Shown piece after piece: positions 4,398-64,000 of a stretch of 64,000 bases of DNA. The position numbers and the translations under genes were made by a program. The notes under the pieces were generated by a model. That model was not told where the DNA came from and ran no database searches. It saw only the letters and a program-made list of their open reading frames with translations. The number at the start of each line of letters is the position of its first letter. Position 1 is the stretch's first letter. The DNA lies in the NCBI GenBank assembly GCA_049644685.1, contig JBARSJ010000071.1, positions 35,829 through 99,828 on the forward strand. The letters run 5' to 3'. The stretch comes from Anaerolineales bacterium (GTDB lineage Bacteria; Chloroflexota; Anaerolineae; Anaerolineales; UBA11858).

Positions 4398-4456
4398 AAC
4401 TGCTTTGAAGTAATTAATAATCCGATTCAATCCGGGTTCTTCCCGGAAATATAATT

Positions 4457-4489: not shown

Positions 4490-4508
4490 ACAGCCAGGGG
4501 AGGTTCTA

Positions 4509-43922: not shown

Positions 43923-43937
43923 ATTAACCAGCAGAAA

Positions 43938-45029: not shown

Positions 45030-45085
45030 GAAGAGGACCTAAAACAGATCCTGGATTCTTACAACTAACAAACAGGAAAAAATAT

Positions 45086-45847: not shown

Positions 45848-45896
45848 CAGTTAAGCCGTTATACCTAAAATGGAATGATGGCACCTATGAGGTATT

Positions 45897-46607: not shown

Positions 46608-46630
46608 ACTTGGCAGGACAATAAAACCAA

Positions 46631-46667
46631 CTGGCAGGGAATAAGTCCCCGTGCCAGTTTTTTTTTC
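46631..46667 (+). terminator. terminator after jag
   Basis: CTGGCAGGG-aataagt-CCCCGTGCCAG (one bulge) followed by T9. Confidence 0.6.
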
Positions 46668-46697
46668 TGAATTTTCGCTTTCAGGTATAATTCCACC

Positions 46698-47546: not shown

Positions 47547-47549
47547 GAT

Positions 47550-48335: not shown

Positions 48336-48399
48336 TAAGTTCAGATAAAAATAAAGTTCAGATAAATCAATGTAACCAGGGAAAAACCTTCAAAAACAT

Positions 48400-49281: not shown

Positions 49282-49318
49282 TTAACACCCTGGCTATTCC
49301 CCTCAATTATTAAAACTG

Positions 49319-50896
49319 ATGGAATCTTTCCAGCTGACCAATGCCTGCATCTATACCATGGATCCCCGGCAGCCGCTGGTTTCTTCCCTGGTCTGCCGCA
49401 GCGGAAAGGTGGAACGGGTTCTCGCTGAAGACCCTCTGGATTCCGAAAATTCCCTTGATCTTGGAGGACGGATCGTTCTGCCCGGATTGATCGATGCCCA
49501 TCTGCATCTGAGGCAGTATGCAGAGAGCCTTCAATATATTGATTGTGAGACCAGGACCAAAGAGGAGTGCCTGGAGAAAGTCGCGGAACGGGCTGCCCTT
49601 ACTCAGCCCGGCGAATGGATTCGAGGACACGGCTGGAATCACAATTATTGGTCCGATGGCTATGGCACAGCAGCAGAACTGGATCAAATTTCCCCTCACA
49701 ACCCAGTCTACCTGACCGGTAAATCCCTTCATGTATCCTGGGCTAATTCCGCAGCGCTTAAAATCGCCGGAATCGGGGCCCAGACACTTGATCCGCCTCG
49801 GGGAACCCTGCTAAGGAATGAAAATGGAAGCCCTACAGGAATTCTGTTTGAAGAAGCAGTTAAACTGATTGAAAAAGTCATCCCATCCCCGAGCGTCGAA
49901 GCTGCCGCGGAAGGCATCCGGAAAGCCCAGGAAGAATTATGGAAAATGGGGATCAGTGGAGTTCACGATTTTGACCGCGAGCTTTGTTATCATGCCCTGC
50001 AGTACCTGGCAGACAGAGAGCAGCTTAAACTCAGGGTACAAAAAAGCATCCCCGCAAAATATTTACCAACAGCTATTGAGCTGGGATTAAGAACTGGATT
50101 CGGAACCGATTGGTTGTGGATTGGGGGAGTGAAGGATTTCGCGGATGGCGCTCTGGGTCCGCAAACAGCTGCCATGCTGGAACCTTATCAAGGATCAAGC
50201 ACTAACAGGGGCATGCCGCTGTTAACAGAAGATAAACTGCTTGAATTGGGCATCAGGGCAGCGCTGGGCGGATTTTCCCTGGCAATCCATGCCATCGGTG
50301 ACCAGGCAAACCGGACTGTGCTGAATGCCCTGGAAAAAATTCGGGATTATGAACGGGAACAGGGTATCAATCCCCTACCGCACCGGATTGAACACCTCCA
50401 GCTTCTTGATCCAGAAGATGTTCCCCGCCTGGCTGGACTAAACATCACTGCCTCCATGCAGCCGATCCATGCCACTTCGGATATGGAGATGGCGGATAAA
50501 TACTGGGGGAAAAGGACCTCTTATTCTTATGCTTCCCAGCTGCAGTTTCAGCAGGGCGCACGGGTAGTGTTTGGATCGGATGCCCCGGTAGACAGCCCCA
50601 ATCCATTCTGGAGCATTCACGCCGCAGTGACCCGCCGGAAAGCCGACGGATTCCCGGGTCCGAACGGCTGGCATCCGGAGCTGCGTGTTCCGCTTGGCAA
50701 AGCCCTGGAAGCTTACACAATTGGACCGGCTGCCGCAGGGGGAAAATCCGGTCAACAAGGCAGCCTTGCACCAGGATACTGGGCTGACTTGATTGTGCTG
50801 GAAAAAGACCCCTTCAGCTGTTCTGAGGATGAATTGAGGGAGTTAAGACCCTCGGCGACGATGATCGGCGGCGAGTGGGTCTGGCGGGAATTCTGA
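49319..50896 (+). CDS. amidohydrolase-family (Amidohydro_3 / YtcJ-like) metal-dependent hydrolase
   Basis: PGLIDAHLHL metal-binding HxH, AIHAIGD, IEHLQL, FGSDAPV. Confidence 0.85.
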   Translation: MESFQLTNACIYTMDPRQPLVSSLVCRSGKVERVLAEDPLDSENSLDLGGRIVLPGLIDAHLHLRQYAESLQYIDCETRTKEECLEKVAERAALTQPGEWIRGHGWNHNYWSDGYGTAAELDQISPHNPVYLTGKSLHVSWANSAALKIAGIGAQTLDPPRGTLLRNENGSPTGILFEEAVKLIEKVIPSPSVEAAAEGIRKAQEELWKMGISGVHDFDRELCYHALQYLADREQLKLRVQKSIPAKYLPTAIELGLRTGFGTDWLWIGGVKDFADGALGPQTAAMLEPYQGSSTNRGMPLLTEDKLLELGIRAALGGFSLAIHAIGDQANRTVLNALEKIRDYEREQGINPLPHRIEHLQLLDPEDVPRLAGLNITASMQPIHATSDMEMADKYWGKRTSYSYASQLQFQQGARVVFGSDAPVDSPNPFWSIHAAVTRRKADGFPGPNGWHPELRVPLGKALEAYTIGPAAAGGKSGQQGSLAPGYWADLIVLEKDPFSCSEDELRELRPSATMIGGEWVWREF

Positions 50897-51050
50897 AAAT
50901 CCAACAATCCTCACTATTTATTAATTACTGTCCTTCATCTCCCAGTCCCCCAGTCACCTGTCCTGAGTAGCGCGACAGAGGAGCGCGTATCGAAGGGCTC
51001 AGTCCCAATTTCACACCCTTTCTCCCTCCGGCGTATCCAGCCGGTCCTCA

Positions 51051-51209
51051 CTATTTACTACTTACTGAATACTGATTACGGGGATGGCATTTTTCATGGA
51101 AGAGAATGAATCGTCTGATCCAGCTGGAATAAGCCTGTTCGGTACGGTAGGCGTAATTTTTTCGGCGGATGGTATCCCGTACCTGGTCAAGCAGTTTCTT
51201 TTTGGTCAT
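51051..51209 (-). pseudogene. intI: integron integrase (IntI) remnant: N-terminal ~43 codons only
   Basis: Not in ORF track. My translation: MTKKKLLDQVRDTIRRKNYAYRTEQAYSSWIRRFILFHEKCHP|RNQYSVSSK*. The part before | matches the IntI N-terminal SAM-like domain (IntI1 [38 protein letters not shown]); RBS AAGGGGG. Confidence 0.8.
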
Positions 51210-51223
51210 CAAACCCCCTTAGA

Positions 51224-51251
51224 TTGTGAAAAGTTGCTGTTATGCTATACT
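51224..51251 (+). promoter_or_regulatory. candidate cassette promoter (Pc-like)
   Basis: TTGTGA (51224-51229) - 16 nt - TATACT (51246-51251), pointing into the cassette array just outside the intI start. Confidence 0.35.
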
Positions 51252-51293
51252 TTGATTATATACTACTCAACAAGGAGAAAACACTGTACTGCG

Positions 51294-51379
51294 CGATAAC
51301 ACAATAATATATTACATACCAATAGTAGGATAACAACCTAATGTGTTATCCCGCAGGTGAAACATAATTAACGTTAGGC
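51294..51379 (+). other. candidate attI region ending in core site GTTAGGC
   Basis: GTTAGGC at 51373-51379; core-like GTTATC boxes at 51294-51300 (inverted), 51328-51334 (inverted), 51345-51351 (direct); GGATAACA-n8-TGTTATCC inverted repeat 51328-51351. Confidence 0.55.
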
Positions 51380-51401
51380 AGCCATTCGATCGGGGATAAG
51401 T

Positions 51402-52064
51402 ATGTCACAGATACTACGAATTCTAATCTACGTCATATTTGGGATCCCACTCATCTTAATCGTGCTGCATACGATAGTGCGAATCATCAGGCACTTTTAT
51501 AAGTTTCCAATGCCCGAATTCTTTGCCAATATCATCGACAATCCACTTCGCCGGCGAATCCAGCCCCCAAATAACACCCCTACCAGGCATAAGATTGAAC
51601 CAGGAATGAAAGTTTTGGAAGTAGGTCCAGGAAATGGAAGCTATACAATGGCAACTGCCCGTAGAGTTGGGGAGAATGGAAAAGTCATAACAATAGATAT
51701 CGAACCGAAGATGATTGATCGAGTTATGAAGAGAGCCCAAATTGAGGGTATTAAGAATATAGAGGCTCGCGTTGCGAATGTATTTGACCTTCCTTTCGAA
51801 GATGGTTATTTCGATGCAGTTTATATGATTACTGTGATTGGTGAGATCCCCACTCCAGAGAGAGCGATGAGAGAGTTCTATCGGGTTTTATCGCCGCAAG
51901 GCACATTGTCATTCAGTGAACTATTAATGGATCCTGATTATCCGCTCGCAGGTTCGATCGAAAAAAATGCACATTCGGTCGGCTTCCGACTACAGGAAAA
52001 GGTCGGGAACTTCTTCCATTACACATTAATTTTCGAGAAGGATAATTTATTGAAAGCTGCCTAA
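51402..52064 (+). CDS. cassette 1: class I SAM-dependent methyltransferase with N-terminal TM helix
   Basis: VLEVGPGNGSYT (motif I), ITIDIEP, FDAVYM; stop TAA lies inside the attC R'' box GCCTAAC. Confidence 0.85.
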   Translation: MSQILRILIYVIFGIPLILIVLHTIVRIIRHFYKFPMPEFFANIIDNPLRRRIQPPNNTPTRHKIEPGMKVLEVGPGNGSYTMATARRVGENGKVITIDIEPKMIDRVMKRAQIEGIKNIEARVANVFDLPFEDGYFDAVYMITVIGEIPTPERAMREFYRVLSPQGTLSFSELLMDPDYPLAGSIEKNAHSVGFRLQEKVGNFFHYTLIFEKDNLLKAA

Positions 52065-52153
52065 CCCCCGCTTCACCCGACAGCCGGTTAGGGCGCCCAG
52101 AGTTAGAGAACTGGAAAGGAAGACCCGGCTGCGGGTGAGCTCATCCGTTATGC
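52059..52153 (+). other. attC site 1 (95 bp)
   Basis: R'' GCCTAAC ... R' GTTATGC; arms CACCCGACAGCCGG / CCGGCTGCGGGTG pair leaving an unpaired A. Confidence 0.85.
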
Positions 52154-52162
52154 TAAATCCGA

Positions 52163-52570
52163 GTGCTTGGAATGCAAATCTTTACAATGACTGATATTAC
52201 GATGAAGAAAGAGAAAAAATATTCACCGAGTGGCATTATTACTATTACATTACTGCTTTCTCTCGCAGTGGTCAATGCTTTTTGGTTAATCGCAAGTTGG
52301 CATGGTGGTGCTTTGATAGCCCTGGCATTCTATTTAGTAATATCTTATCTTTGCCTCAGAAGGCAACATTTCCAAGCAGGTGTAATCGCGGGTATCCTCG
52401 GATTTGGAATTCATATATATGAGTTATTTGTACTGGGGACGAGTGAATTGATAGGAATTGATCAAGTTTACTTCTACGTGAATCTGATTCTTCCTATTCC
52501 TCTCACTATCACAAGTTATTTGGCATCTCACAAGGAATCTGCTGGACATGAAGAGAAAACAAATTCTTAA
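52163..52570 (+). CDS. cassette 2: small 4-TM membrane protein, unknown function
   Basis: Hydrophobic helices; start uncertain (GTG 52163, ATG 52172/52187/52202). Confidence 0.6.
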   Translation: MLGMQIFTMTDITMKKEKKYSPSGIITITLLLSLAVVNAFWLIASWHGGALIALAFYLVISYLCLRRQHFQAGVIAGILGFGIHIYELFVLGTSELIGIDQVYFYVNLILPIPLTITSYLASHKESAGHEEKTNS

Positions 52571-52583
52571 ACTGAGAGATTAC

Positions 52584-52669
52584 GCATAACCCACGCTCCA
52601 CCCGAACCTTCGATACGCCCATTCGCTACTCTCAGGGCTTCTCAGGACGGGTGAGCTTTTCCGTTAGCC
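52584..52669 (+). other. attC site 2 (86 bp)
   Basis: R'' GCATAAC (reverse complement of cassette-2 start GTTATGC) ... R' GTTAGCC; loop consists of a CCTTCG...CTCAGGAC element. Confidence 0.8.
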
Positions 52670-52713
52670 AGCATAATAGCTCATATATCTGACCAATATA
52701 GGAGGAGGAATTC

Positions 52714-53394
52714 ATGCTTACAAACAGTCAGCTGATCAGAATAATTTCCCTCTTTTCCTTGCTTGTGTGTTTGCCCTTCATCACCGCTTGTTCAAACGCT
52801 GAGCAGGATCTCCCCCTGGAGCGGGTATCCCTGTCGAAACACGCTTGCATAAGTGGTAGCAGCTTTACCCCACACCTGCCATTAGGCGTCAATGATCAAA
52901 TCAAGGCACCGGCTCTCGCCGGAGGTACTGTCAGGTCCGGTGATTTCCTGATTTCACTCTGGTTAATTTGCGATCCATCCCTTGCCTCAGATGACCCGGA
53001 TTTCCCAGAATACTCATGGCAAGAGTTCAGCGAAGTGCGGTATCTGGGCTTCCTTTCTGGTTGGGAGTATTTAGGGGACCCCCCGGACCAGGAGATCAAG
53101 GAATCTTTGACAATCAATGGGGAGGTCATAAGTGGGCACATAATCGCATCTCACACCGACCCTGAAAGAAGCTTGTCTAGAGGCGAGGGGCATGCAAGTT
53201 ATGGTCCGATCAACACCGAAAACCAAATCGTTGCCCAGGCCCTTGCCGCTGGAGAACCCGTTGATATCGTACTTACTATCTTTGGTTCTAAAACCCTTGC
53301 CGAAGTGCACCTGCGCGCATCGTTTGAGGAAACGCCGGATGGCTACCGCCTTCTCAGTGCCGAGATCCTGACGAACACTGGAAAACTACCATAA
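52714..53394 (+). CDS. cassette 3: lipoprotein of unknown function
   Basis: Signal peptide plus lipobox LPFITAC; RBS GGAGGAGG. Confidence 0.7.
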   Translation: MLTNSQLIRIISLFSLLVCLPFITACSNAEQDLPLERVSLSKHACISGSSFTPHLPLGVNDQIKAPALAGGTVRSGDFLISLWLICDPSLASDDPDFPEYSWQEFSEVRYLGFLSGWEYLGDPPDQEIKESLTINGEVISGHIIASHTDPERSLSRGEGHASYGPINTENQIVAQALAAGEPVDIVLTIFGSKTLAEVHLRASFEETPDGYRLLSAEILTNTGKLP

Positions 53395-53552
53395 TTGATA
53401 ACAGGAGGGCTTTACCGCCATGTTGATTGGGTATACCTACCATCACTTGATCGGGTATCATTCCCCATAATTATTGGTGCCCCGGTGTTTTACAATCTTC
53501 TCTTACCGCTGTTTTCTTTTTCCTTAATGGTCTCCCGTTTTATCTGAATGCG

Positions 53553-53652
53553 GGCTAACCCCCGCTCCACCCGACAGCCAGGGGCGGACCGGGGACCGAA
53601 AACGGAAGACCGGGAAAAACAATCTGGCTGCGGGTGAGCTATTCCGTTGGGC
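53553..53652 (+). other. attC site 3 (100 bp)
   Basis: R'' GGCTAAC (reverse complement of cassette-3 start GTTAGCC) ... R' GTTGGGC; arms CACCCGACAGCCAG / CTGGCTGCGGGTG. Confidence 0.85.
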
Positions 53653-53737
53653 GGCTGCGTTGCATGGTCAAGCTTCGAGAGAGCCAAAATAGTTGAGCAA
53701 TATACAGATGGCAGTCACAGCAGGAGGTCATGATCTG

Positions 53738-54397
53738 ATGAAATCAAATGTTGAGATAATCCAAGATATCGTTGAGCAGGTCGTTAATCAAAAGAAAATC
53801 GATATATATGACCAGTACATCAGCGAGGATTACATCTCGCGAGGATCTCCATATGTCGGTATGGGTTTTTCTGTAGACAGCTCAGGGAATAAGCACATCA
53901 TTGAAATCATTGTCCCTGGCAGCCCTGCCGAGGGGAAGCTCCAGGTGGGAGACGAGCTGCTCTGGGCAGAGGATGAACACCAGCGTTGGGTCACTTATGA
54001 GGATATAAAGCAGCGTATTTTGCAGAGTTATCGGGGCAACAAATACAAGGTGGGAGTACGTCGGGGTAATCAGACTCTCGAGGGTGAATTGACCAAAGAT
54101 TTATTCAAGGGCTTCGATACCCCCAAGGATCAGGCAAAGTCGGATCTGCGGGAGTTTATGACGAAAGAATTTCCAGATTTAAAAGCCACCATAAAGCAAA
54201 TTCTCGCAGATGGGGATATGGTTGTTTGTTTGCTGGAGTATCGCGGTAACCACGCTAACTTCGAGCGAGAGGCAGTTTGGCGAGAGGCCTGGTTTGTACG
54301 CCTGTCTGAAGGGAAAATCGTCGAGGACTGGACTGTTTTTGATGGAACTTCCTACTTTAATCAGCTTGGCTTCCAGATCATTCCGCCTAGCACCTGA
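53738..54397 (+). CDS. cassette 4: SnoaL/ester-cyclase-like protein with PDZ-like insertion
   Basis: ATG 53738 sits 10 nt after AGGAGG (ORF track starts at TTG 53693); NVEIIQDIVEQV... and DMVVCLLEYRGNH...GKIVEDWTVFD flank VPGSPAEGKLQVGDELL. Confidence 0.65.
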   Translation: MKSNVEIIQDIVEQVVNQKKIDIYDQYISEDYISRGSPYVGMGFSVDSSGNKHIIEIIVPGSPAEGKLQVGDELLWAEDEHQRWVTYEDIKQRILQSYRGNKYKVGVRRGNQTLEGELTKDLFKGFDTPKDQAKSDLREFMTKEFPDLKATIKQILADGDMVVCLLEYRGNHANFEREAVWREAWFVRLSEGKIVEDWTVFDGTSYFNQLGFQIIPPST

Positions 54398-54489
54398 TAC
54401 ATCTCGAATTTAAGATCTTTTCCTGCGATCGATTTTGGTATGTTGCAGGAAGAATGGGAAAATAGGATTTGAAAATAGTACTAAACGCC

Positions 54490-54615
54490 GCCCAACCACG
54501 CGTTAACGCTGACCCGGTTGTCGCCACGCTCCAGCCTGCTAGGTCTCGCGTAAAATCTTTTCGTCGTGCGGGGTTTAGAAGTCAAACCGCTGGGTAGGTT
54601 ACGCAAATGTTGGGT
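54490..54615 (+). other. attC site 4 (126 bp), divergent sequence class
   Basis: GCCGCCCAAC is the exact reverse complement of cassette-4 start GTTGGGCGGC; R' GTTGGGT; arms GCGTTAACGCTGACCC / GGGTAGGTTACGC with unpaired T and G. Confidence 0.75.
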
Positions 54616-54666
54616 TGCAGAAAATCAAAGATCACATTTAGAACATCAAAGTCATAAGGAGCATCA

Positions 54667-55578
54667 ATGTGCACATGTGAGAAATCGAAGATTGTATTTG
54701 ATACGACCACGTTAGAGAAGATAGTCAATGATCCCCAATGGGTTCTTGAAAATGAAGAGAAATTTTGGGCTGAGTACCGAGCTCAGATATTGACACGTAA
54801 ATGGGCAGAACATGTCAAATATGAAATTCCATACGAAGAATGGAGAGAGAAGATTGAAGGGTGGAAAAACTTATCGCTAGATGAACGAGAAAACCATGAA
54901 TTAATGAAGGTCGCCCAGCGGATACTATCAGCAAAAGATGAGTTTCTAGAGAAAGCATTGCCGCATGATTGTTCATTTTTGCCGGATGGCGTTGATTTGA
55001 GCGTAACAGTGCAGTTCACAGCATTTGTTCCACCATTTGCGTTTGCGATGGAAGACCTTGTAATCGATGTGGCCTCGAAGTATTGGAAAGGTAATCCAGA
55101 ACATGTATTGAATTTGCTTGTTCATGAAATATTTCATGTGGGTTACAGTTATTATCTAACAATACAAAATGAAAAGGAATTAGTTGAAGAAAGTTTATAT
55201 AAAATTCTGGACAATATTGTGAATGAAGGAATATGCACATATGTAGGGTATTGTGCTTTGCCAATCTTTCCAGTAGAAGATGAGCGGGATTATCGAATGC
55301 TGGAATATAATGATGAAGTTCACAGGTTGTTTGCGGATACGAATACTGTACTTTCGCAATATGGCATATTATCTGATGAAGAATTACAAAAACTATCTTG
55401 GGATAAGGGTGTCATTGGACGGGCATATTACGTAACAGGTGCCCATATGTGCAAAACAATTGATGAGACTAAGGGCAGAGATGCATTGATTGAAGTTTAC
55501 TCAAAAGGACCAATCTCAATTATTGAATATTACAACACAGTTGCAAATGATGATCTGAAAATATTACTTCCTGAATGA
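54667..55578 (+). CDS. cassette 5: putative HExxH zinc-peptidase-like protein (DUF2268-like)
   Basis: LLVHEIFHVGY motif; RBS AAGGAG; family assignment tentative. Confidence 0.6.
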   Translation: MCTCEKSKIVFDTTTLEKIVNDPQWVLENEEKFWAEYRAQILTRKWAEHVKYEIPYEEWREKIEGWKNLSLDERENHELMKVAQRILSAKDEFLEKALPHDCSFLPDGVDLSVTVQFTAFVPPFAFAMEDLVIDVASKYWKGNPEHVLNLLVHEIFHVGYSYYLTIQNEKELVEESLYKILDNIVNEGICTYVGYCALPIFPVEDERDYRMLEYNDEVHRLFADTNTVLSQYGILSDEELQKLSWDKGVIGRAYYVTGAHMCKTIDETKGRDALIEVYSKGPISIIEYYNTVANDDLKILLPE

Positions 55579-55591
55579 TAAGACAAGTGCA

Positions 55592-55722
55592 ACCCAACCC
55601 TCCATGTAGCCGACCCAGCGGGGCTGGGATGGTGAGCGTGGCGAAAATTGCACTCGAAGGTTCTAGATTACAATATTCGGGATTGAAAATCCCCGCTGGA
55701 TCGGCTAATGAAATCGTTATGC
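55592..55722 (+). other. attC site 5 (131 bp), divergent sequence class
   Basis: GCAACCCAAC is the exact reverse complement of cassette-5 start GTTGGGTTGC; R' GTTATGC; arms CATGTAGCCGACCCAGCGGGG / CCCCGCTGGATCGGCTAATG with unpaired G. Confidence 0.75.
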
Positions 55723-55748
55723 GGTAAAAAGTTTTATCTAGGTAAAAA

Positions 55749-57053
55749 ATGGTTAAGAAAAATGTAATTAATATCTTTTGCTTGGTCCTTGTTCTTTCAA
55801 GCTGCTCACCAGTCGACAAACATAACCCCGATCAGCCAAGCACAGAAGAACGTATCGATGATCTTTTCACTCGCTATACCAATGCAGGTGAGTTTTCTGG
55901 CTCCATCCTAGTCGCTAAAGGAGATCAAGTTCTCTTTAGGAATGGCTATGGTTTTACGGATCGGGAAGAACAAATTCCCAATACCCCAGATACACAGTTT
56001 AGTATCCAATCAATTACTAAACTTTTCACCTATGCCTCTGTAATGATGGAAGTTAAAGCAGACCATATTTCACTAAATGACCCAGTTGAGCAATATTTCC
56101 CCGGTTTTCCCAATGGTGACAAGATCACGATTGACCACCTCCTCCACCATCGGTCGGGACTCTTCCATTACCCTCATGAAGTACCCGATCATGAATACGG
56201 ATCACTCTCGACCCCCATCACAATCAATGCTCTGATCAAAGAATTCGAAGGCTATCCGTTGAAGTTTGAGCCTGGAGAACAATACGGATACAGCAACGCA
56301 GGCTACTCTATACTGGCGAGAGTAGTTGAGAATCTGAACGATACACCTTTTGACGAGTACCTTGAGGCAAAACTCTTCGCTCCCACGGGAATGCACCAGA
56401 CTACAGCTGATTGGGAAACAGCCTCTCAGGATATTGCAATAGGGTACGAGAAAGTGGATGGTGAGTTCATTCGCAGCTCAGCCGATCACCCATCCCACTT
56501 CATTGGGTCCGGAACAACCTACACCACGATTGACGATATGTATAGCTGGTACAAAGCCGTTTATATCAACGGCTCGATGTCTGAATTCTCATCTGGGGGA
56601 GGAGATGGTGGCGGGATGGGATACCGAGCTATATTCTGGCCTATACCCTCCTTCGATCTGGTAATCATTATCCTGAGTAACTATCGGGATGCACCTGTTT
56701 ATGAGCTTGTAACTGAGGTGGTTGATATTCTGTTAGAAGAGACCACATTCATTGATCATGATCCAAAAACCTTGGAAGCTTTAATTGGTCACTACATGGC
56801 TGATTCGGGTTATGGAGTATTCAACTACCGGATTTATGGATCAAATGAAAAATTATTTGTGTCAGTCACCGATTTCCTTGGTGTATCACGCGTCTATGAA
56901 CTCCGCCCCATCTCACCAAATCAACTCGCATTCTTGACGGATGGACGGCTCACGGGCCAAACGCTCACATTCAAATGGGGGGAAGATGCCAATTCTCACG
57001 AGTTTCTGTTCGACATGAACTTATTGCAGTTGAAGGCCATACGCGATGATTAA
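55749..57053 (+). CDS. cassette 6: beta-lactamase-fold serine hydrolase (class C/PBP-like) lipoprotein
   Basis: Lipobox VLSSC; SxxK (SITK), YxN (YSN); 434 aa. Confidence 0.8.
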   Translation: MVKKNVINIFCLVLVLSSCSPVDKHNPDQPSTEERIDDLFTRYTNAGEFSGSILVAKGDQVLFRNGYGFTDREEQIPNTPDTQFSIQSITKLFTYASVMMEVKADHISLNDPVEQYFPGFPNGDKITIDHLLHHRSGLFHYPHEVPDHEYGSLSTPITINALIKEFEGYPLKFEPGEQYGYSNAGYSILARVVENLNDTPFDEYLEAKLFAPTGMHQTTADWETASQDIAIGYEKVDGEFIRSSADHPSHFIGSGTTYTTIDDMYSWYKAVYINGSMSEFSSGGGDGGGMGYRAIFWPIPSFDLVIIILSNYRDAPVYELVTEVVDILLEETTFIDHDPKTLEALIGHYMADSGYGVFNYRIYGSNEKLFVSVTDFLGVSRVYELRPISPNQLAFLTDGRLTGQTLTFKWGEDANSHEFLFDMNLLQLKAIRDD

Positions 57054-57118
57054 TATTGGGATAGATTGGTTGCGATTGATCAAGTTTTGATACTGTTATT
57101 AATTGTAAGAATTCGACC

Positions 57119-57244
57119 GCTTAACCCCCGCTCCACCTGACTGCCGGTTTTTTACTGTTATCCCGCTTTTATTCCCCCTTATCGGTTTCAGTTCTATAAT
57201 CAATACCAGAAACACCTGGCAGCAGGTGAGCTCATCCGTTATAA
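57119..57244 (+). other. attC site 6 (126 bp)
   Basis: ACCGCTTAAC vs expected ACCGCATAAC (9/10 to cassette-6 start); R' GTTATAA; arms CACCTGACTGCCGG / CCTGGCAGCAGGTG. Confidence 0.8.
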
Positions 57245-57283
57245 AGCAATTAGGAATACGGCTAACTCCATGGAGGTAAATTC

Positions 57284-58108
57284 GTGGATACAAAGAACGT
57301 TACCCTTCTACTATTCTCCCTCTTCTTCCTTTGCAGTGCCTGTCAAAACACTTTACCTGAACCCAATCCAACCCAAACCATTTCTTTGACACCTATCGAT
57401 TCTCCCATCCCAACACAGGTGAAACCAACAGCTGTCCCGGAATCAGAAGTAATCCCAATCAATGAAGACTGGAATGTATATAAAAATCACCGTTTGGGAT
57501 TTTCAATCAAGATCCCAGCCAACCCGATCTGGAGCAGTGGTGCTCAATGTTCAGAGTTAAATTTACCAGAAGAAGGCTTTTTACCAGTTGCCGTCATTGA
57601 AAGAGAAGATCGGATTTACATCACCACAGAAACAGCTCTTCAGTTCCCATATTCAGAACGGGAGGAGTCCCTCGAGGTTAAGCCCGCCAGGGGAGAGAAT
57701 TGTGAGATTGTTAAAGTTACCCTGGAACTCCTCGAAAACGAAGATTATTTTCCTTTGGATCTCTGGGAAATTGCTATCAAACCAATAATGTCAGAAAATG
57801 ATCTCGAGTTTTTCGTAGACGAATATTACGGTGATTGCTATTATGTAACAGAAAAAACTCCCCTGAGCGACAGGGGATTAATAAAAGTAAAAATCAGTGG
57901 TAATGAAGATCCTAATGTAGATCCTGACGCTACCTGCGTGGTGCGCTGGGGTTATCTCTATTATTATTCAGTGGAGTTCTCAAGAGCTGCCACATGGATG
58001 TTCGGCCAGAGCTTGCATTTTTGCGCCAGCGGAGCCAACCAGGATTGTTATGATAACGATATGCTGCGCAGCTTTGAGTTCATTCCTGTCATATATCCAC
58101 CGGAATAA
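57284..58108 (+). CDS. cassette 7: Cys-containing lipoprotein of unknown function
   Basis: GTG start 7 nt after GGAGGT; lipobox FLCSAC. Confidence 0.7.
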   Translation: MDTKNVTLLLFSLFFLCSACQNTLPEPNPTQTISLTPIDSPIPTQVKPTAVPESEVIPINEDWNVYKNHRLGFSIKIPANPIWSSGAQCSELNLPEEGFLPVAVIEREDRIYITTETALQFPYSEREESLEVKPARGENCEIVKVTLELLENEDYFPLDLWEIAIKPIMSENDLEFFVDEYYGDCYYVTEKTPLSDRGLIKVKISGNEDPNVDPDATCVVRWGYLYYYSVEFSRAATWMFGQSLHFCASGANQDCYDNDMLRSFEFIPVIYPPE

Positions 58109-58112
58109 TGTT

Positions 58113-58277
58113 TTATAACCCCCGCTCCACCCGACAGCCAGGTTGGATGGCAATTATAATGGGATGGGCATTAAATCTTTAATAACAAGACCAGCAGACT
58201 TTTTGTTTTATACTGATTAAGGGCTGCGGGTGCCCTTCGCTGTACTCAGGATGCTTCGCGAAGCTCATCCGTTAGGC
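58113..58277 (+). other. attC site 7 (165 bp) with nested 29-nt insert
   Basis: R'' TTATAAC ... R' GTTAGGC; GGGTG[CCCTTCGCTGTACTCAGGATGCTTCGCGA]AGCTCATCC. Confidence 0.8.
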
Positions 58278-58440
58278 TTTTTTTTTAATAATCATTGTTT
58301 GGCCTTTGGATCATGTGGGTTATGCAGAAACTATAAACGATGTGATTGTCAGTCACAATAAGACAAGTTGAAACAATAAAAGTATAATGCCATCACCATT
58401 CACAAGTTCGATATGAAAAATCTATTTAGGAGAATAATCA

Positions 58441-58779
58441 ATGGAAAGTTCTAATAAAACAAACCATCTGGCAATTGTTAGTTTTGTTAGTGGGATGATA
58501 GCCCTCATATGTATTGTGTTAATATTTGTATTTTACAACTCGGCAGAAACCGCAGAGGGCATCATCAACATCACAGATGGAATAATAATGCCTGTGCGAA
58601 ATCTCTGTGTGATAGTGACGCTATTAACGGGTATTCTTGCGGTTAAAGATATAAAGAAAACGGGCGGAACTAAAAAAGGAAAAATATTTTCCTGGTTCGG
58701 CATAGTTGTTGGAGCTGGCTGGATCCTCTTTGGATTGCTTGTTGGCATAACATTTCTCATAGCTGAAATTCTTCACTGA
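58441..58779 (+). CDS. cassette 8: small 3-TM membrane protein (DUF4190-like)
   Basis: RBS AGGAG; HLAIVSFVSGMIALICIVLIF-type helices. Confidence 0.6.
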   Translation: MESSNKTNHLAIVSFVSGMIALICIVLIFVFYNSAETAEGIINITDGIIMPVRNLCVIVTLLTGILAVKDIKKTGGTKKGKIFSWFGIVVGAGWILFGLLVGITFLIAEILH

Positions 58780-58812
58780 ATCCTTAAGCTGAGAATAGAA
58801 TCGCCAAGAGCC

Positions 58813-58967
58813 ACCTTACTCCCGCTCCACTAGACAGCAAGATGGACGCTGCGCTCACGACAGGGGTAAAGAGACGGAAGACGGGAGACCGGAGGTCGCT
58901 TCGCTTCCGACCGGGTAGACTGATACTGATACTTAGATCCTTCTGCGAGTGAGTTCATCCGGTAGGC
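58813..58967 (+). other. attC site 8 (155 bp), both core boxes mutated
   Basis: ACCTTAC in place of RYYYAAC and GGTAGGC in place of GTTRRRY; internal blocks CCCGCTCCAC...GAGTTCATCC conserved. Confidence 0.65.
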
Positions 58968-58970
58968 ACT

Positions 58971-59567
58971 TTGAAACAAGATATTTTGGTCGAGATAATC
59001 GATATGGGAAAACAAAGCCTTAGCCTCCTTGAACGCTTTTCTTTGAGGGCAGAAGAATTGATAATGACACGATTGGTGCCAAAGGACAATCCAGGCCCCA
59101 TATTCAAGAGACTGTTCAAAACACCGATATTCTTTTACCGTATTGGCCTTCCTCTGTTTAGCAGCTTCGTCCTGTTATTGACTACAACCGGGCGAAAGAG
59201 TGGGAAACAGCGATACACGCCGCTTGAATATCAACGCGAGCAAGGAACGGGTAATCCAATCATCATGGCAGGTTGGGGGGGAAAAACGGATTGGAGGCTC
59301 AATATTAAGGCAAATCCGCATGTTCATGTTCAGATCGGACAAGAATGCTTTGACGCCATCGCTGAACCTCTTAGCGACGAAGAAATCGCAGCAAGGTTGA
59401 CAGAGGCCATGAAGATAAATCCAAGGAGTGCGAAGATATAGTCACGGTGGGTGGGAGAAAGTGTGAGTCTAGCGGATCCTGGCAGTGTAGCCAGAGCTGT
59501 GAAGTATTTTCCATGCTTTCGCTTGAAACCGATCAATGAATATGTTGGAAGTGATCAAAGCACCTAA
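58971..59567 (+). pseudogene. cassette 9: deazaflavin(F420)-dependent nitroreductase-family (DUF385) gene interrupted by in-frame TAG at 59439-59441
   Basis: LLLTTTGRKSGKQRYTPL, WRLNIKANPHVHVQ; the frame continues after TAG to TAA (59565-59567, inside R'') and encodes ...VKYFPCFRLKPI, resembling the family C-terminus. Confidence 0.65.
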
Positions 59568-59802
59568 CCTCCGCTCCACCTGACTGCCGGGATGGTTCGC
59601 TGCGCGAACGACCGGGAGAAAGAGACCGATGACCGGGGGAGGTTTCACCTCCGACCGGTTTTACTGGGAAAGAAATACTGATTACTGACTTTTGTCCCGG
59701 ATGCGGGTGCCCTTCGCTGTACTCAGGATGCTTCGCGACCCTTCGTCTCCCCCTTGGCTACGCTCGGGGCTCGCTCAGGACAAATGAGCTCATCCGTTAG
59801 GA
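59562..59802 (+). other. attC site 9 (241 bp) with two tandem nested inserts
   Basis: R'' ACCTAAC ... R' GTTAGGA; arms CACCTGACTGCCGGG / CCCGGATGCGGGTG; inserts at 59710-59738 and 59739-59781. Confidence 0.8.
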
Positions 59803-59846
59803 TGCAGCTTTGATTAGATCAACCAATAAAAAGGAAGGTCGGAAAG

Positions 59847-60758
59847 ATGACAAATAAAGATGGAGAACCAAAACCTTCAGAAACCGCCTTATTTGCTGCC
59901 TTGCGTAGAACCATTGCAAATATAGACTTCAATAATGAGAATTTTGGACCAGACAATATGGCCGAATATTTTTTACCCCCTCACTTTAGATTTTTTCTAA
60001 AATTCAAAAAAATACGAGCAAATACCAAAGCAAAATTAAATGACTTTTTGCCTGGGTTGAATGAATACATGATTGCTAGAACAGCCTATTTTGATCGGCT
60101 ATTCAATGATGCTTTACACAACGAAACACCTCAAATTGTACTGCTTGGCGCAGGATACGATACACGAGCGTATCGTTTTGCAGAGTTAAATCAAGGGACA
60201 GAAATATTTGAATTGGATATTGGTCCAACCCAAGAGAGAAAAAAGAAATGTTTAAAAAAGGCAAAGATAGCCATCCCCCAACAAGTCACTCTCGTTCCAA
60301 TAAATTTCAATAAAGACTCATTGAAAGATGTTCTAGAAAAAGCGGGATTTCAAGACCATAAAAAAACTCTCTTTGTATGGGAAGGGGTGAGCTATTACCT
60401 CGATGCGGAATCAGTCAATTCAACCTTGGATTTCGTCAGCCATCTTCCAAATCATGAAAGTTCTATAGCATTTGATTACACTATTTCAATTTCAGAAGAA
60501 AAAATAAATGATTATTATGGCGTAAAAGAATTTTCTCAAACGATGAAGGAGCAACATGCAGATGAGAAACTCATGTTTTCCATTGATGAAGATGAAACAG
60601 AATCATTTTTAGAGCTGAGAGGGTTGAATATAGTTGAACATTTGGATAGTGAAGAGATCGAGAGAACATTTTTAATAGAAGAAAATGGATCACTAATAGG
60701 TCAAATTACCGGGCATTTTCGTTTTGTATTGGCTACACAAAAAAAGCTTCAAGAGTAA
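59847..60758 (+). CDS. cassette 10: SAM-dependent O-methyltransferase of the LCMT / TIGR00027-like family
   Basis: QIVLLGAGYDTRAYRF, WEGVSYYL motifs; RBS AGGAAGG. Confidence 0.8.
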   Translation: MTNKDGEPKPSETALFAALRRTIANIDFNNENFGPDNMAEYFLPPHFRFFLKFKKIRANTKAKLNDFLPGLNEYMIARTAYFDRLFNDALHNETPQIVLLGAGYDTRAYRFAELNQGTEIFELDIGPTQERKKKCLKKAKIAIPQQVTLVPINFNKDSLKDVLEKAGFQDHKKTLFVWEGVSYYLDAESVNSTLDFVSHLPNHESSIAFDYTISISEEKINDYYGVKEFSQTMKEQHADEKLMFSIDEDETESFLELRGLNIVEHLDSEEIERTFLIEENGSLIGQITGHFRFVLATQKKLQE

Positions 60759-60764
60759 TGAGAA

Positions 60765-60924
60765 ACCTAACCCCCGCTGCACTTGTCAGCCAGGGGCAGA
60801 CCGAGGACGGATGACGGAAGACCGAAGCCTGGAAACTTACGCCAGGCAGCAGGCGGTCTTCGCAAACCTGTCCTGAGTGAAACGAAGAGTAATCAAAGGG
60901 CATCGCTAAGCTCATCTGTTAGGC
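60765..60924 (+). other. attC site 10 (160 bp) with inverted nested insert
   Basis: R'' ACCTAAC ... R' GTTAGGC; arms CACTTGTCAGCCAGG / CCAGGCAGCAGGCG; insert between GGCG and AGCTCATCT. Confidence 0.8.
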
Positions 60925-60930
60925 ACTAAA

Positions 60931-61383
60931 ATGGCAAAAACTAATCCAATATCAAAAGAATTGATCGCACCGTGCGGAATGAATTGTGCCATCTGCAGCC
61001 GGTATCTTTCCTACCTCAATAATTTGAATCGCAGCCAGTGTATTGGTTGTCGTCCGCGGAATGAGGTTTGTAAATACCTATTTCAAAAATGTACTGGCAT
61101 AAATCATTCTTCAAAAGGAGATGCTGCCTTTTGCTATGATTGCGATCAGTTTCCTTGTAAGCAAATAAATCGGATGGATGACCGCTATAGAAAAAATTAT
61201 GCGATGAGCGTGAAGGATAATTTGATATTTATAGACCAGATGGGAATCAAGAAATTTATTAAAGAACAACAGCAGAAATATCAATGTTCTAAATGTGGTA
61301 ATCAAATATCAATACATAATAGAAAATGTTTCAATTGCGATGAGGTAACACGCTTGGTTGAAAAAAGTAGTAAGAATTATTAA
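60931..61383 (+). CDS. cassette 11: Cys-rich protein (DUF3795-like)
   Basis: CGMNCAICSRY, CIGCRPRNEVC, CYDCDQFPC, CSKCGN, CFNC clusters; ATG only 6 nt after the R' box. Confidence 0.65.
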   Translation: MAKTNPISKELIAPCGMNCAICSRYLSYLNNLNRSQCIGCRPRNEVCKYLFQKCTGINHSSKGDAAFCYDCDQFPCKQINRMDDRYRKNYAMSVKDNLIFIDQMGIKKFIKEQQQKYQCSKCGNQISIHNRKCFNCDEVTRLVEKSSKNY

Positions 61384-61397
61384 TGATTTATCCTAGT

Positions 61398-61600
61398 ACC
61401 TAACCCCCGCTTCACCTGACCCGGCACCTTCGGTGCGGTAAGCAGTAGTTTTGTAAGTAATAAGCAGTTTAAAAATTCAGATTAATGACAGCGTTAGTGC
61501 TGAGATTGGTTCTATTTACTATTTACTACTTACTAATTACTAAGCCGAGCGGGTGCCCTTCGCTGTACTCAGGATGCTTCGAGAAGATCATCCGTTAGGT
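61398..61600 (+). other. attC site 11 (203 bp) with heptamer tract and nested 29-nt insert
   Basis: AGTACCTAAC vs expected AGTGCCTAAC (9/10); R' GTTAGGT; GGGTG[CCCTTCGCTGTACTCAGGATGCTTCGAGA]AGATCATCC. Confidence 0.8.
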
Positions 61601-61613
61601 CGCACAGAATTCT

Positions 61614-62195
61614 ATGATGATTGATGTAATACAAATTCTGTTTCTGTTTTCTGTCATACTTGAAATGATATATTTAGTTTTATTTATTCTGACGAAAAAG
61701 TTACCAGGCTTTCGCTTCTGGCCTCCCCCAAAGCCTCAATCTTGGCAATTCTTTGTGTCTTGGTTAATTGCGGGTTTGGTGGCTGTAAACTTTCTTGTCT
61801 TGGGACTGTTAGATTTCGACAGTTTCATACTCCCCAACTTAAAACAAAGGCTTCCATTTGCCATCAGTCTCTTTTTGATAGGTTCATTGTTAGGTTCTTG
61901 GGCATTCGGGACATTTGGGCTGAAGAATACAATTGGTGTTGATAATAAGCTAATCACAGGTGGTCCATATAAATATTCTCGGAACCCACAATACATTGGG
62001 GACAGTTTGAACATTGTTGGATATATGGTATTAACGAATTCATGGATGATCTGGATTATCGGTTTGTTAGGTGTATTATTGAATCTTCTTGCACCGTCTA
62101 TTGAAGAACCCTGGCTAGAGGAACGGTATGGAGAAAGATACCTTGAATACAAACGCAGGGTTCCGAGGTTCTTTGGTAAAGTTGGGACGGGATAA
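61614..62195 (+). CDS. cassette 12: ICMT/PEMT-family membrane methyltransferase
   Basis: GGPYKYSRNPQYIGD, multiple TM helices, C-terminal EEPWLEERYGERYLEYKRRVPRF. Confidence 0.8.
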   Translation: MMIDVIQILFLFSVILEMIYLVLFILTKKLPGFRFWPPPKPQSWQFFVSWLIAGLVAVNFLVLGLLDFDSFILPNLKQRLPFAISLFLIGSLLGSWAFGTFGLKNTIGVDNKLITGGPYKYSRNPQYIGDSLNIVGYMVLTNSWMIWIIGLLGVLLNLLAPSIEEPWLEERYGERYLEYKRRVPRFFGKVGTG

Positions 62196-62200
62196 GCGCG

Positions 62201-62370
62201 TCCTAACCCCCGCTCCCCTTCGACTGTGCTCAGGATCTGCGACACCTGACCGCCTATAAACTGCCTGAGTGACTTGGAGATTATATGATGGAGTGAAGCG
62301 AGATTCGCCAAATTGGAATATACTGAATACCGATTACTGATTACTGAAAACTAGTGTCAGGGGGCAGGTG
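62201..62370 (+). other. attC site 12, 5' half plus L' arm only; R' box not found
   Basis: GCGTCCTAAC vs expected GCGACCTAAC (9/10); 27-nt insert 62216-62242 in the left arm; GGCAGGTG at 62363-62370 is followed by another element instead of AGCTCATCCGTTAGG. Confidence 0.55.
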
Positions 62371-62453
62371 CCCTTCGATTCTGCTACGCTCCACTCAGGA
62401 CAGGCTTGTCGAGGGGCTTTGCGAATCAGGGGAACAAATTATCACCTGATTGT

Positions 62454-62483
62454 TTACCACTAACCACAATAGCAGTATATAAT
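62454..62483 (+). promoter_or_regulatory. candidate internal promoter upstream of MFS gene
   Basis: TTACCA - 18 nt - TATAAT (62478-62483), 38 nt upstream of ATG 62521. Confidence 0.35.
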
Positions 62484-62520
62484 CAGACAATATTCACGAA
62501 GCCTCGTTGGAGCAAACACA

Positions 62521-63762
62521 ATGGAAACAACTGAAAAACAACCTTTGCTGACACCCCTGATGAGATGGTTCATGTTCGCCATGGTGCTGGCTAATGTAGC
62601 CAGCGCCATGTATCCGATGCTCATGCCCATCTACCTGACGGAGCTGGGCGCCAGCATCACTCAGGTTGGGTTAATATTCACACTCACATCAGTCGTGGTT
62701 TTGATCTTACAGATTTTCGGCGGCTGGGTTTCCGACTCAATTGGACGCCTGCGTTCGATTGCTATCGGCAGTGTGGGCGGGATATTTGGTTTTGTGGCGG
62801 TGCTGCTAGCCCCAACCTGGCAGTGGATGTTAGCCGCCTTATGTGTGCTTCAGTTCCCCTATGCTCTTGTCGGACCAAGTTTTGGGGCTTTTATCGCGGA
62901 GAATTCCACCACAGAGAACCGCGGTAAAGTGTATGGGATCACCGACACAATCTTCCAGATCACCGGCGTAATCGGCCCACCCGTAGGCGGGTTACTGGTC
63001 GGTCGATATGGGTTCAAAATGATGTTCCTGGTTTCTGGGAGTCTTTATGCTTTAGCGGCTATTTTACGGATCTGGATGGCTTCCACAGTCCGCACCACCA
63101 CAGAAGCCAACCCCCGAAAACTCTCGACATCTTCCTTGAAAACCAGCGTAAAAACCATGTTCGGCATGATCCTGGGCGGCGGGGTGCTGACCTGGATTTT
63201 CGTCACCGATGGGGTGCGTGATACCGCTTTCCGGCTCTCGGGCGAGCTACAGCCTCTTTACCTGGAACAGGTCGCTGGGATCTCCGTGGAGCAGATCGGC
63301 ATTTTGGGGTCAATCTTCTCCATCGCGATGATGTTTACCCCCATCCTTTCGGGAAAAATGGTCGATAAATATGGGGAACGCGTTCCGATCTCTTTGGGGT
63401 TCCTGCTGGTGTTCTTCGCTTTCATGATCTTCTTGCAGGTCGGTAACTTCGTTGGATTTGCGATAACCTGGATCGTTTTTGGGATCGGAGTGGGGCTGCT
63501 CAGCCCGGCGTATCAATCCCTGATTTCAAAGGTGGTACCCCAAAAGATGTTAGGTACCTTCAGCGGATTATTCCGCAGCAGCCTGGGATTGATCTCTCTC
63601 CCAGCCCCCTACATCGGCGCCCGGCTGTGGGAAACTTTCTCTCCCAAAGTTCCCTTCGTCATCACTTCGATCGCGGCCCTGATTACCATCATCCCGACCT
63701 GGTTGTTCTTCAAAGTACCGGATGAGCCGCCAGATCTCGATCCTGCACCCGAAACGAACTGA
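62521..63762 (+). CDS. cassette 13 (or fused 12/13): MFS transporter
   Basis: 12 predicted TM helices; motif-A-like GWVSDSIGRLRS; RBS GGAG. Confidence 0.85.
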   Translation: METTEKQPLLTPLMRWFMFAMVLANVASAMYPMLMPIYLTELGASITQVGLIFTLTSVVVLILQIFGGWVSDSIGRLRSIAIGSVGGIFGFVAVLLAPTWQWMLAALCVLQFPYALVGPSFGAFIAENSTTENRGKVYGITDTIFQITGVIGPPVGGLLVGRYGFKMMFLVSGSLYALAAILRIWMASTVRTTTEANPRKLSTSSLKTSVKTMFGMILGGGVLTWIFVTDGVRDTAFRLSGELQPLYLEQVAGISVEQIGILGSIFSIAMMFTPILSGKMVDKYGERVPISLGFLLVFFAFMIFLQVGNFVGFAITWIVFGIGVGLLSPAYQSLISKVVPQKMLGTFSGLFRSSLGLISLPAPYIGARLWETFSPKVPFVITSIAALITIIPTWLFFKVPDEPPDLDPAPETN

Positions 63763-63926
63763 AATAGCCGGGGGTTACAAAAAATGGCAATTTGCCTTCT
63801 TTGCCAAAAAGAAAAGGATGTCTGGTTTTTGGATAGCAAAACGAGAACTAAGCAATGTTTTTGAAAATCTTTATTGGTGGAATTGAACTTAAGTTACTTA
63901 TGCCATTATCATTACCTATAGTTACA

Positions 63927-64000
63927 GGCTAACCCCCGCTGCCCTTTACCCGAAGGGCAGACTTGTCCGCGACCGAAGTTCGTGCCGAAGGGCCTGTCCT
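63927..64000 (+). other. attC site 13 (truncated by window end)
   Basis: GGCTAACCCCCGCTGCC start matches the family; ends with CGAAGGGCCTGTCCT, an inverted CCCTTCG...CAGGACAGG-type element. Confidence 0.65.

Follow-up and report, generated by a model that had tools for sequence, protein, structure and literature searches.

The window (the whole stretch of 64,000 nucleotides that was analysed, from contig JBARSJ010000071.1 of an Anaerolineales bacterium) contains at 50.9-64 kb a chromosomal integron, which adjoins yidC, jag, parA, parB and an amidohydrolase gene. The non-coding DNA of this integron harbours short repeats of 27 to 50 bases, found in both orientations, and we report here that they are one real family, that they are local members of a widespread intergenic repeat family, and that within the attC recombination sites of the integron they sit mostly at one precise structural spot. 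It is this position, rather than the existence of the repeats, that we consider to be the new point.

The integron and its attC sites

The array comprises 13 attC sites, 11 of which belong to one family, TAACCCCCGCTC-CACCYGAC ... GCRGGTG-AGCTCATCC-GTTAG, and two to another type. Inverse core sites (R'' RYYYAAC and R' GTTRRRY) are present, for example GCCTAAC...GTTATGC in attC1 and ATAAC...GTTAGGC in attC7. According to the part of Nivina et al. (2016, PMC5027507) that deals with attC structure, the extrahelical bases are located on the R''-L'' arm, the first in L'' and the last 6 bp further in; here, the pairing of GCTC-C-ACCCG-A-CAGCC with GGCTG-CGGGTG-AGC leaves extra bases 6 bp apart, and the extra C and A of the top strand correspond, on the bottom strand, to a G located in L'' and to the distal T. 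Empty sites (those devoid of repeats) fold as hairpins that match the canonical anatomy. In every feature tested, the host sites are attC sites. The cargo of the cassettes is ordinary and includes no transposase.

attC4 (54490-54620) and attC5 (55590-55720) are of other attC types, with CCCAAC as R'' and different stems.

A family of short repeats

A first-pass annotation, made from the sequence alone, had listed six related elements with common ends and a variable middle, and regarded a shorter 29-mer as a trimmed relative. All six are present in the sequence where it had placed them. The last one is cut by the end of the window, and its reality is established by the related locus L244 (98.8% identical over 4.4 kb and extending 1.3 kb past the window end), where the complete attC13 (4352-4525) contains two entire tandem inverted copies followed by TCATCCGTTAG. 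Two other units had been overlooked, namely unit G and the unit in the 5' arm of attC13. The ends proposed as common to all, GCCCTTCG(A/T) and CTCAGGACAGG, are exact in units A and D, whereas B, C and E depart from them by one to three bases, and the middle motif GCTACGCTC, said to be frequent, is confined to C and D (GCTAC is found in A to D). The 29-mer is indeed a short member of the family, with both cores (CCCTTCG and CTCAGGA) plus the tail TGCTTCGCGA. A unit may be described as having a core X on the left (GCCCTTCGA-Y) and a core Y on the right (R-CTCAGGACAGG), on either side of a variable middle that sometimes contains a small hairpin or CTAC (GTAG on the other strand); in some cases Y is followed by an inverted X.

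Could this likeness be a chance resemblance between short GC-rich motifs? Taken singly, the 7-nt cores do occur at chance frequency outside the integron (1-50896), as this explanation would have it, and they are enriched in 50897-64000 (11 X and 11 Y). However, the combined pattern CCTTYG-N(4-34)-CTCAGGR has nine matches in the 64-kb window against 0.49 expected, a number reached by none of 100 dinucleotide-preserving shuffles, and all nine are confined to 50961-62400; no composite X-Y unit was found in the ~5.4 kb of non-coding DNA of 1-50896, whose extent may be compared with the ~3.6 kb of such DNA that the integron contains. The existence of identical 29-mers, the near-identical 46-nt copies in L244 and the bases fixed around the cores in genome matches (see below) point the same way. 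Chance is refuted by this enrichment, by the L244 copies and by the fixed flanking bases, and we leave it practically no credence.

Similarity beyond the cores exists inside subfamilies (A/B; C with the attC13 copies; D/E; F/G), D and E forming an inverted pair (I1) that is 80% complementary over 40 nt, and none spans all copies taken together. The alignment that the first-pass annotation had recommended fails for the copies treated as one family, which MAFFT misaligns because their middles differ in length; anchored patterns and shuffles were used in place of a covariance model. As for orientation, nine of the 13 units are in the sense of the cassettes, and inverted copies are also present.

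Position of the units in attC sites

Ten of the 12 units located inside attC sites lie at the helical discontinuity of the L box, though the loops are much larger targets (Table 1). At the bond GGGTG^AGCTC, exactly opposite the extrahelical base, stand the three 29-mers (F1 to F3), units C and D, and the insert that contains unit E; at the mirror bond GCTS^CACC, that is, at the extrahelical base itself, stand unit G and the first unit of attC13. All inserts, at both sites, begin with YCCT, and the flanks GGGTG| and |AGCTC add up to the uninterrupted site, without any duplication. The sequence of F2 is the same as that of F1, while the stems of their attC sites differ, with compensating changes. 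The position of G is apparent from the empty 5' arms, which read TAACCCCCGCTC|CACCTGAC, and a junction of the same kind as that at the end of unit C, CTCAGGACAAACG|AGCTC, was met in the metagenome locus L168. In attC10, the inverted unit E is flanked by a forward X fragment (GTCTTCGCAAA in the window, CCCTTCGCAAA in L244) and by ATCGCTA.

In the minimum-energy folds of filled attC sites, the GC-rich stem is kept and the unit forms a side branch, the short GCT/AGC helix being lost in some cases. Unit B makes up the loop of attC2, whose canonical stem is likewise kept.

Table 1. Repeat units, integrase remnant and heptamer runs in the window
Feature	Position	Strand	Description
Unit A	50957-50998	-	GCCCTTCGATACGCGCTCCTCTGTCGCGCTACTCAGGACAGG; A/B subfamily; outside any attC, between the stop codon of the amidohydrolase gene and the intI stub; architecture X-GATAC-(GCGC..GCGC)-TAC-Y
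intI stub	51081-51209	-	N-terminal remnant of ~45 codons (MTKKKLLDQVRD...FHEKCHPR), after which the reading frame is broken
Unit B	52607-52648	+	A/B subfamily, X-Y-Y; whole apical loop of attC2 (52587-52668)
29-mer F1	58233-58261	+	CCCTTCGCTGTACTCAGGATGCTTCGCGA; attC7, between GCGGGTG and AGCTCATCCGTTAG, opposite the extrahelical base
29-mer F2	59710-59738	+	Identical to F1; same bond, attC9
Unit C	59739-59786	+	attC9, in tandem right after F2; ends in ...CTCAGGACAAATG|AGCTCATCC
attC10 insert	60856-60908	-	53 nt, between GGCG and AGCTCATCT; core is inverted unit E, 60867-60901
29-mer F3	61556-61584	+	Two mismatches to F1; same bond, attC11
Unit G	62216-62242	+	CCCTTCGACTGTGCTCAGGATCTGCGA; 5' arm of attC12, between GCTC and CACCTGAC, at the extrahelical base
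Unit D	62371-62404	+	attC12, after GGCAGGTG (L' box); no AGCTCATCCGTTAG follows
Inverted X' of unit D	62409-62417		TCGAGGGGC; D and X' together span 62371-62417
attC13 units	63942-64000		Forward unit CCCTTTACCCGAAGGGCAGACTTGTCCGCGA at 63942-63972, after TAACCCCCGCTG; then X' fragment at 63973-63993
Sixth listed copy	63993-64000	-	Inverted C-type unit, of which the window, ending here, contains the first 8 nt (CCTGTCCT)
Heptamer runs	50940-50958, 58871-58894, 58919-58933, 60798-60827, 61512-61542, 62321-62347		Also at 11620-11730 of the related locus L243

The same bond in other arrays

A scan of metagenomes with the 5' arm of the main attC family of the window listed at least 120 loci, and 260 unique paired attC sites could be compared (253 from the metagenome loci and the relative L243, seven from the window). 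Among the matches listed, to which all counts of this section refer, 40-45 of the 260 sites (15-17%) have an insert at GGGTG^AGCTC, and the L-box inserts of other arrays are all in the same orientation. They are built of modules of 20-22 nt of the form CCCT-N(3-5)-AGGRTGCTTCGCAA (in full, CCCT-N(3-5)-AGGRTG-CTTCGCAA), with one to three modules in tandem; longer forms carry the X and Y cores, and one of them, CCCTTCGTTATCACTCAGGATGTTACGCGA, is close to the 29-mer of the window. One more insert is located at CCGCTG^AGCTC, which is the same relative bond in an attC with a different L-box sequence. X-Y units were found at GCTC^ in three of 336 5' arms, and several metagenome attC sites have an X-Y unit as their whole loop.

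Occupancy is bimodal: there is no insert in arrays of 12, 11, 8, 8, 7 and 6 attC sites, and elsewhere the proportions are 4/5, 4/4 and 3/3. The module variants are specific to each array, and modules are found on several loop types. Full-length intI genes are present in L166, L224, L131, L179 and L232, metagenome loci that have this attC family (~45-54% identical to IntI1 over residues 5-330), and the arrays that lie beside such a gene in L166 (12 attC sites) and L224 (three) have no L-box module, an absence which, for 15 sites only, is no more than suggestive.

The repeat family in other genomes

The pattern GCCCTTCGA-N(8-32)-CTCAGGACAGG was found at 120 loci or more in contigs representing one genome per species. 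Among the matches listed are members of Chloroflexota (Anaerolineae and Dehalococcoidia), Sphingomonadales, Burkholderiales, Nitrospirota, Eremiobacterota, Actinomycetota, Bacteroidota, Cyanobacteria, Planctomycetota and other groups. Bases that the pattern leaves unspecified are nearly fixed: out of 126 of these matches, 102 have a C following X, 102 a G preceding Y and 114 a C following Y, so that we are dealing with homologues and not with chance matches. Further cores lie within 40 nt in 74 of the 126, as ~24-nt tandem arrays or as inverted pairs, and 22 have a perfect inner hairpin, whose sequence differs from one match to the next. The architecture of units A and B recurs in other Anaerolineae, for example as GCCCTTCGATAC-GCC-TGC-GGC-TACTCAGGACAGG in L057. 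The window units are local representatives of this large intergenic family. The exact 29-mer has no match in the one-genome-per-species contigs.

The X-Y cores thus define a very widespread intergenic repeat with no counterpart in Rfam: nothing relevant appeared with Rfam 15 at E<5 in 50500-64000, nor was there any match at gathering score over the units of 18 genome loci. When the literature was searched with sequence and peptide strings, unrelated primer sequences were all that appeared, and no paper on the X-Y repeat. We presume that this repeat gives rise to spurious open reading frames (ORFs) with peptides such as PFDKLR.

Head-to-tail X-Y arrays with a period of 22-25 nt were also observed in unrelated phyla (L038, L091, L112, L064 and L043), that of L091 consisting of eight copies of GCCCTTCGACAAGGCTCAGGACAG.

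How the units may have reached the attC sites

We think that the best explanation of these data, to which we give a probability of about one half, is that non-autonomous repeats enter folded, single-stranded attC sites at points defined by structure, and are then copied among the attC sites of the same array. A unit with a defined 5' end (YCCT) would be inserted under the guidance of the structure, either in the apical loop or, far more often, at the L-box helical discontinuity, the nearest precedent for the enzyme required being an activity of the HUH/RAYT type (RAYT, REP-associated tyrosine transposase; REP, repetitive extragenic palindrome) acting on single-stranded hairpins. The argument for targeted entry is that several types of unit, on both arms and in both orientations, use one exact bond with a constant 5' end; REPs that nest in palindromes offer a precedent (PMC3733652). 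The units would then spread by gene conversion or template switching between the attC sites of one array, and this would account for arrays being either devoid of units or rich in them, and for variants being array-specific; the single orientation in other arrays, the tandem multiples and the mosaic nature of the attC sites (see below) also argue for copying of this kind.

What could be the consequence for recombination? The portions of Nivina et al. (PMC5027507) devoted to strand choice indicate that attC sites are recognised by their shape, that extrahelical bases contribute to the choice of strand by the integrase, and that bottom-strand recombination falls when these bases are transferred to the opposite arm, the effect being strongest for VCR2. 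A branch of 20-80 nt where the integrase IntI reads the extrahelical G should therefore lower or abolish bottom-strand recombination and fix the cassettes concerned; by analogy, filled attC sites should recombine poorly. Units that pile up may even erase the stem of an attC (attC13) or its R' end (attC12). In sum, the analysis establishes that the units exist, which family they belong to, where exactly they lie, how they are oriented and how they are distributed over the arrays, whereas the way of insertion and the consequence for recombination are inferred.

Several points weigh against this scenario. Eight units folded as DNA were compared with 200 shuffles each and gave z-scores of -1.0 to +1.3, so that the structure which the first-pass annotation had proposed to look for is no better in the window copies than in shuffled sequence. 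Neither target-site duplications nor terminal inverted repeats are present at the units, and no transposase, RAYT or recombinase was detected among the Pfam-scanned ORFs of the 64-kb window. The close relatives (L244-L253, 98.6-100% identity) show the same states as the window and provide no pair of empty and filled versions of the same attC, which means that insertion is deduced from the comparison of different attC sites. The attC sample was itself selected through one intact 24-nt 5' arm per locus, among the matches listed. Units in both orientations at one target do not fit a strict mechanism of the IS200/IS605 type. Finally, the left junction GGGTG|CCCT that the inserts have in common could have been inherited from a single ancestral insertion, with no need for repeated targeting.

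In the main rival view, which we regard as doubtful but serious, there was no insertion: an L-box branch arose once, was inherited, and spread by concerted evolution or template switching, being propagated at cassette formation or by homogenisation of attC sites, either neutrally or because it was selected for tuning excision, while the longer X-Y forms would result from later slippage and internal duplication. This accounts for the fact that the 3'-arm inserts all share the junction GGGTG|YCCT and mostly the tail GCTTCGCAA, as well as for the single orientation, the one to three tandem units, the array-specific variants and the bimodal occupancy. Mosaic attC sites, such as the 155-nt 5' arm and loop that in L250 are joined to another gene and to a 3' end of another kind, suit it too, as does the resemblance of the module tails (AGGRTG-CTWCGCRA) to the L'-spacer of a second type of 3' end, CAGGT-TACGCAAAT; furthermore, both bonds are probably those at which a polymerase entering the hairpin from one side or the other meets the GC-rich stem. 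However, units are also found at the mirror position of the 5' arm, in loops and, for unit A, outside attC sites, inverted units (E and those of attC13) use the same bond, and the X and Y cores belong to a family present in many phyla outside integrons, so that the sequence at least came from elsewhere. The module-free arrays of L166 and L224, next to full-length intI, do not suggest a selected function.

One may also ask whether the units are REP or REPIN (paired REP) elements mobilised by a RAYT, an IS200/IS605-like HUH tyrosine transposase, whose gene would lie in another part of the genome, and for which attC hairpins would be good single-stranded substrates. Here one can invoke the CTAC that immediately precedes Y in units A to D as well as in 13 of the 126 listed genome matches, the perfect inner hairpins of 22 of these matches, and the frequent head-to-head or tandem groups, reminiscent of bacterial interspersed mosaic elements (BIMEs). 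REPs are, besides, known in Chloroflexi, and Di Nocera et al. (2013, PMC3733652) document their nesting within other palindromes, among others in Thermomicrobium roseum, a species of Chloroflexi. Against this, the window copies have no significant hairpin, no RAYT is present in the window, both orientations occur at one target, many units lack GTAG, and X and Y hardly vary from one phylum to another, whereas REPs differ with each cognate RAYT. We thus consider this proposal improbable. Still much less probable is a role in RNA, the units acting as processing, stabilising or attenuating signals between the cassettes of long transcripts: the sense bias of the window units and the uniform sense orientation of all ~40 surveyed modules would agree with it, and the silence of Rfam, folding no better than that of shuffles and the very existence of inverted copies would not, the more so as the inner hairpins seen elsewhere are perfect Watson-Crick helices with no G-U bias noted.

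Returning to structure-directed insertion, one could go further and imagine that the extrahelical-base discontinuity is a specific target of undescribed micro-elements of 20-50 nt which colonise arrays and brake excision, either as parasites or as stabilisers favoured by the host. We mention this stronger version as a speculation that we do not ourselves expect to be correct.

Comparison with known elements

Among known systems, the one whose working comes closest to that of the units is the REP/BIME repeat when nested in a palindrome. Like the GTAG-tagged REPs and BIMEs (PMC3733652), they are short (20-50 nt), GC-rich and extragenic, occur singly, in inverted pairs or in tandem clusters, and may in some copies have a stem-loop beside GTAG. 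They differ in that the window copies have no significant fold and that two non-complementary cores, near-identical across phyla, take the place of a lineage-specific palindrome; moreover, the host palindrome is here an integron attC, the bond used is at or opposite the extrahelical base, and the window has no RAYT.

The classical REP hairpin was rejected on the folding z-scores, and the stable stem-loop that the imperfect palindrome of a REP (20-40 bp) is expected to form is lacking in the window copies. Only unit D makes a 10-bp stem among the units folded, with its downstream inverted X, and this hairpin has z = -1.0; in unit F, CTTCGC pairs with GCGAAG, two bases of which are supplied by the attC. 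Units A to D have CTAC, which is GTAG read on the other strand, ahead of Y; GTAA or GTAC takes its place in E, in F and in the copies of attC13, and G has none.

Insertion sequences (ISs) of the IS1111-attC group and group IIC-attC introns (PMC3001079, PMC11187229) also enter folded single-stranded attC sites specifically. These elements are autonomous and 1.3-2 kb long, and encode a transposase or else combine a ribozyme with a reverse transcriptase, whereas the units are 20-50 nt long, without an ORF, mostly in sense orientation and located in the L box. An IS1111-attC identity, which would imply a DEDD transposase gene, subterminal inverted repeats and a length of about 1.3-1.5 kb, was rejected since the inserts, of 27-53 nt, have no ORF and since the window lacks the IS ends ATGAGAAGGCC; a group IIC-attC intron or any curated RNA family was rejected because no covariance model matched over the units. 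The IS found in L249 (see below) uses another site than the units, in AT-rich loop heptamers. Miniature inverted-repeat transposable elements were likewise rejected, the ends YCCT... and ...CGCAA or ...CAGG not being inverted repeats and target sites not being duplicated. A hammerhead-like reading of CCTGAG...CGAA on the reverse strand was tried and abandoned, its core misfitting CUGANGA and Rfam being silent.

There remains the known variation in length of attC sites, which the relevant parts of Bouvier et al. 2009 (PMC2727003) and Nivina et al. 2016 (PMC5027507) ascribe mostly to the stem together with the VTS (variable terminal structure) between the arms, with no mention in those parts of an L-box branch. 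Such variation is normally taken up by the apical loop, with which unit B, as a whole loop, agrees, and the extrahelical bases with their 6-bp spacing are also as those papers have them; a branch of 20-80 nt in the L box, opposite the extrahelical G or at that base, is different from it.

We do not see here a new kind of system, and the relevance is to specialists of integrons. For them, the L-box branch is a natural experiment on the structural tolerance of attC sites and could explain the fixation of cassettes in sedentary chromosomal integrons; covariance-model attC finders may miss filled sites or delimit them wrongly.

Integrase loss and altered attC sites

It had been suggested that the repeats cause, or accompany, the rearrangements that inactivated this integron. 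This is only partly supported. The units clearly remodel attC sites, as attC12 and attC13 show. Five assemblies (the window, L001, L244, L245 and L252) indeed have an attC12 without R' directly beyond the D hairpin, and no intact version of attC12 was found among the relatives. attC13 has kept R'' and R' and has no CACCYG/CRGGTG stem; it consists almost entirely of units, one forward and two inverted, which are able to pair. An inversion at D, proposed because the right flank of attC12 resembles the reverse complement of L' plus the module, was rejected since the downstream gene of the major facilitator superfamily and attC13 are normally oriented.

By contrast, that the units caused the loss of the integrase is not supported. 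A tblastn search with IntI1 (a probe used solely to locate homologous DNA) aligned its residues 15-53 with 51197-51081 (56% identity, E 7e-9) and detected no further intI fragment in the window. The element announced at the intI breakpoint is not there: intI ends at ~51080 against TACTGATTAC heptamers, and unit A lies ~80-120 nt further on. Unit A is present in L242 and absent from the relative L243 (91.5% identical over the adjacent 9.4 kb), where intI is truncated at a different codon and joined to CCCAGTC-type heptamers; A is thus not needed for the loss of intI. An assembly artefact is unlikely, the A junction being recovered in L242 and that of attC12 in L001, L244, L245 and L252, from other samples.

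Unit A is contained in a 114-nt segment flanked by 23-nt direct repeats, TCCTCACTATTTAYTAMTTACTG at 50908-50930 and 51045-51067 (91% identical), which could be the footprint of a duplication or insertion.

A second class of repeats, distinct from X-Y, consists of tandem heptamers (GAGACGG, ACTGAT, AGACGGA, CTATTTA, TACTGAT, CCCAGTC) that fill attC loops and the intI junction, and that directly abut the intI breakpoints both in the window and in L243. They may be likened to the short tandemly repeated repetitive (STRR) sequences of cyanobacteria, and form a separate class that only co-occurs with the X-Y units.

An IS of the IS1111/IS110 family is present at 1190-2660 of L249, a locus 99.7% identical to the window over 60766-61527, antisense to the cassettes and in the loop of an attC matching attC11. 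It encodes a protein of 353 residues (DEDD_Tnp_IS110 and Transposase_20), has subterminal inverted repeats ATGAGAAGGCC / GGCCTTCTCAT and is inserted within an AT-rich heptamer run, CTATTTACTATTTACT^TACTTACTG. Since the heptamers abut the intI breaks and this IS lies in heptamers, heptamers or ISs are better candidates than A for the loss of intI.

Neighbouring genes and cassette reshuffling

Upstream of the integron (43900-50900 of the window), the order is yidC, jag, pfkB, parA, parB and the amidohydrolase gene, with rpmH further upstream in L243. A gene set of this type usually marks the region of the replication origin.

A cassette for a methyltransferase of the leucine carboxyl methyltransferase (LCM) type is found downstream of three different attC sites, in the window (59847-60758), in L250 (656-1567) and in L251 (442-1353), from which it follows that cassettes are reshuffled in the population despite the intI stub of this strain. 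Positions 442-604 of L250 correspond to 61400-61598 of the window, that is, to the 5' arm and loop of attC11 (155 nt, 95% identical), behind a different upstream gene; the 3' end of this site differs as well, reading ..CAGGT TACGCAAAT GTTAGG, which is the spacer type of attC4 in the window (54590-54612). The junction of an attC11 arm with another 3' end indicates that the attC sites are mosaics here.

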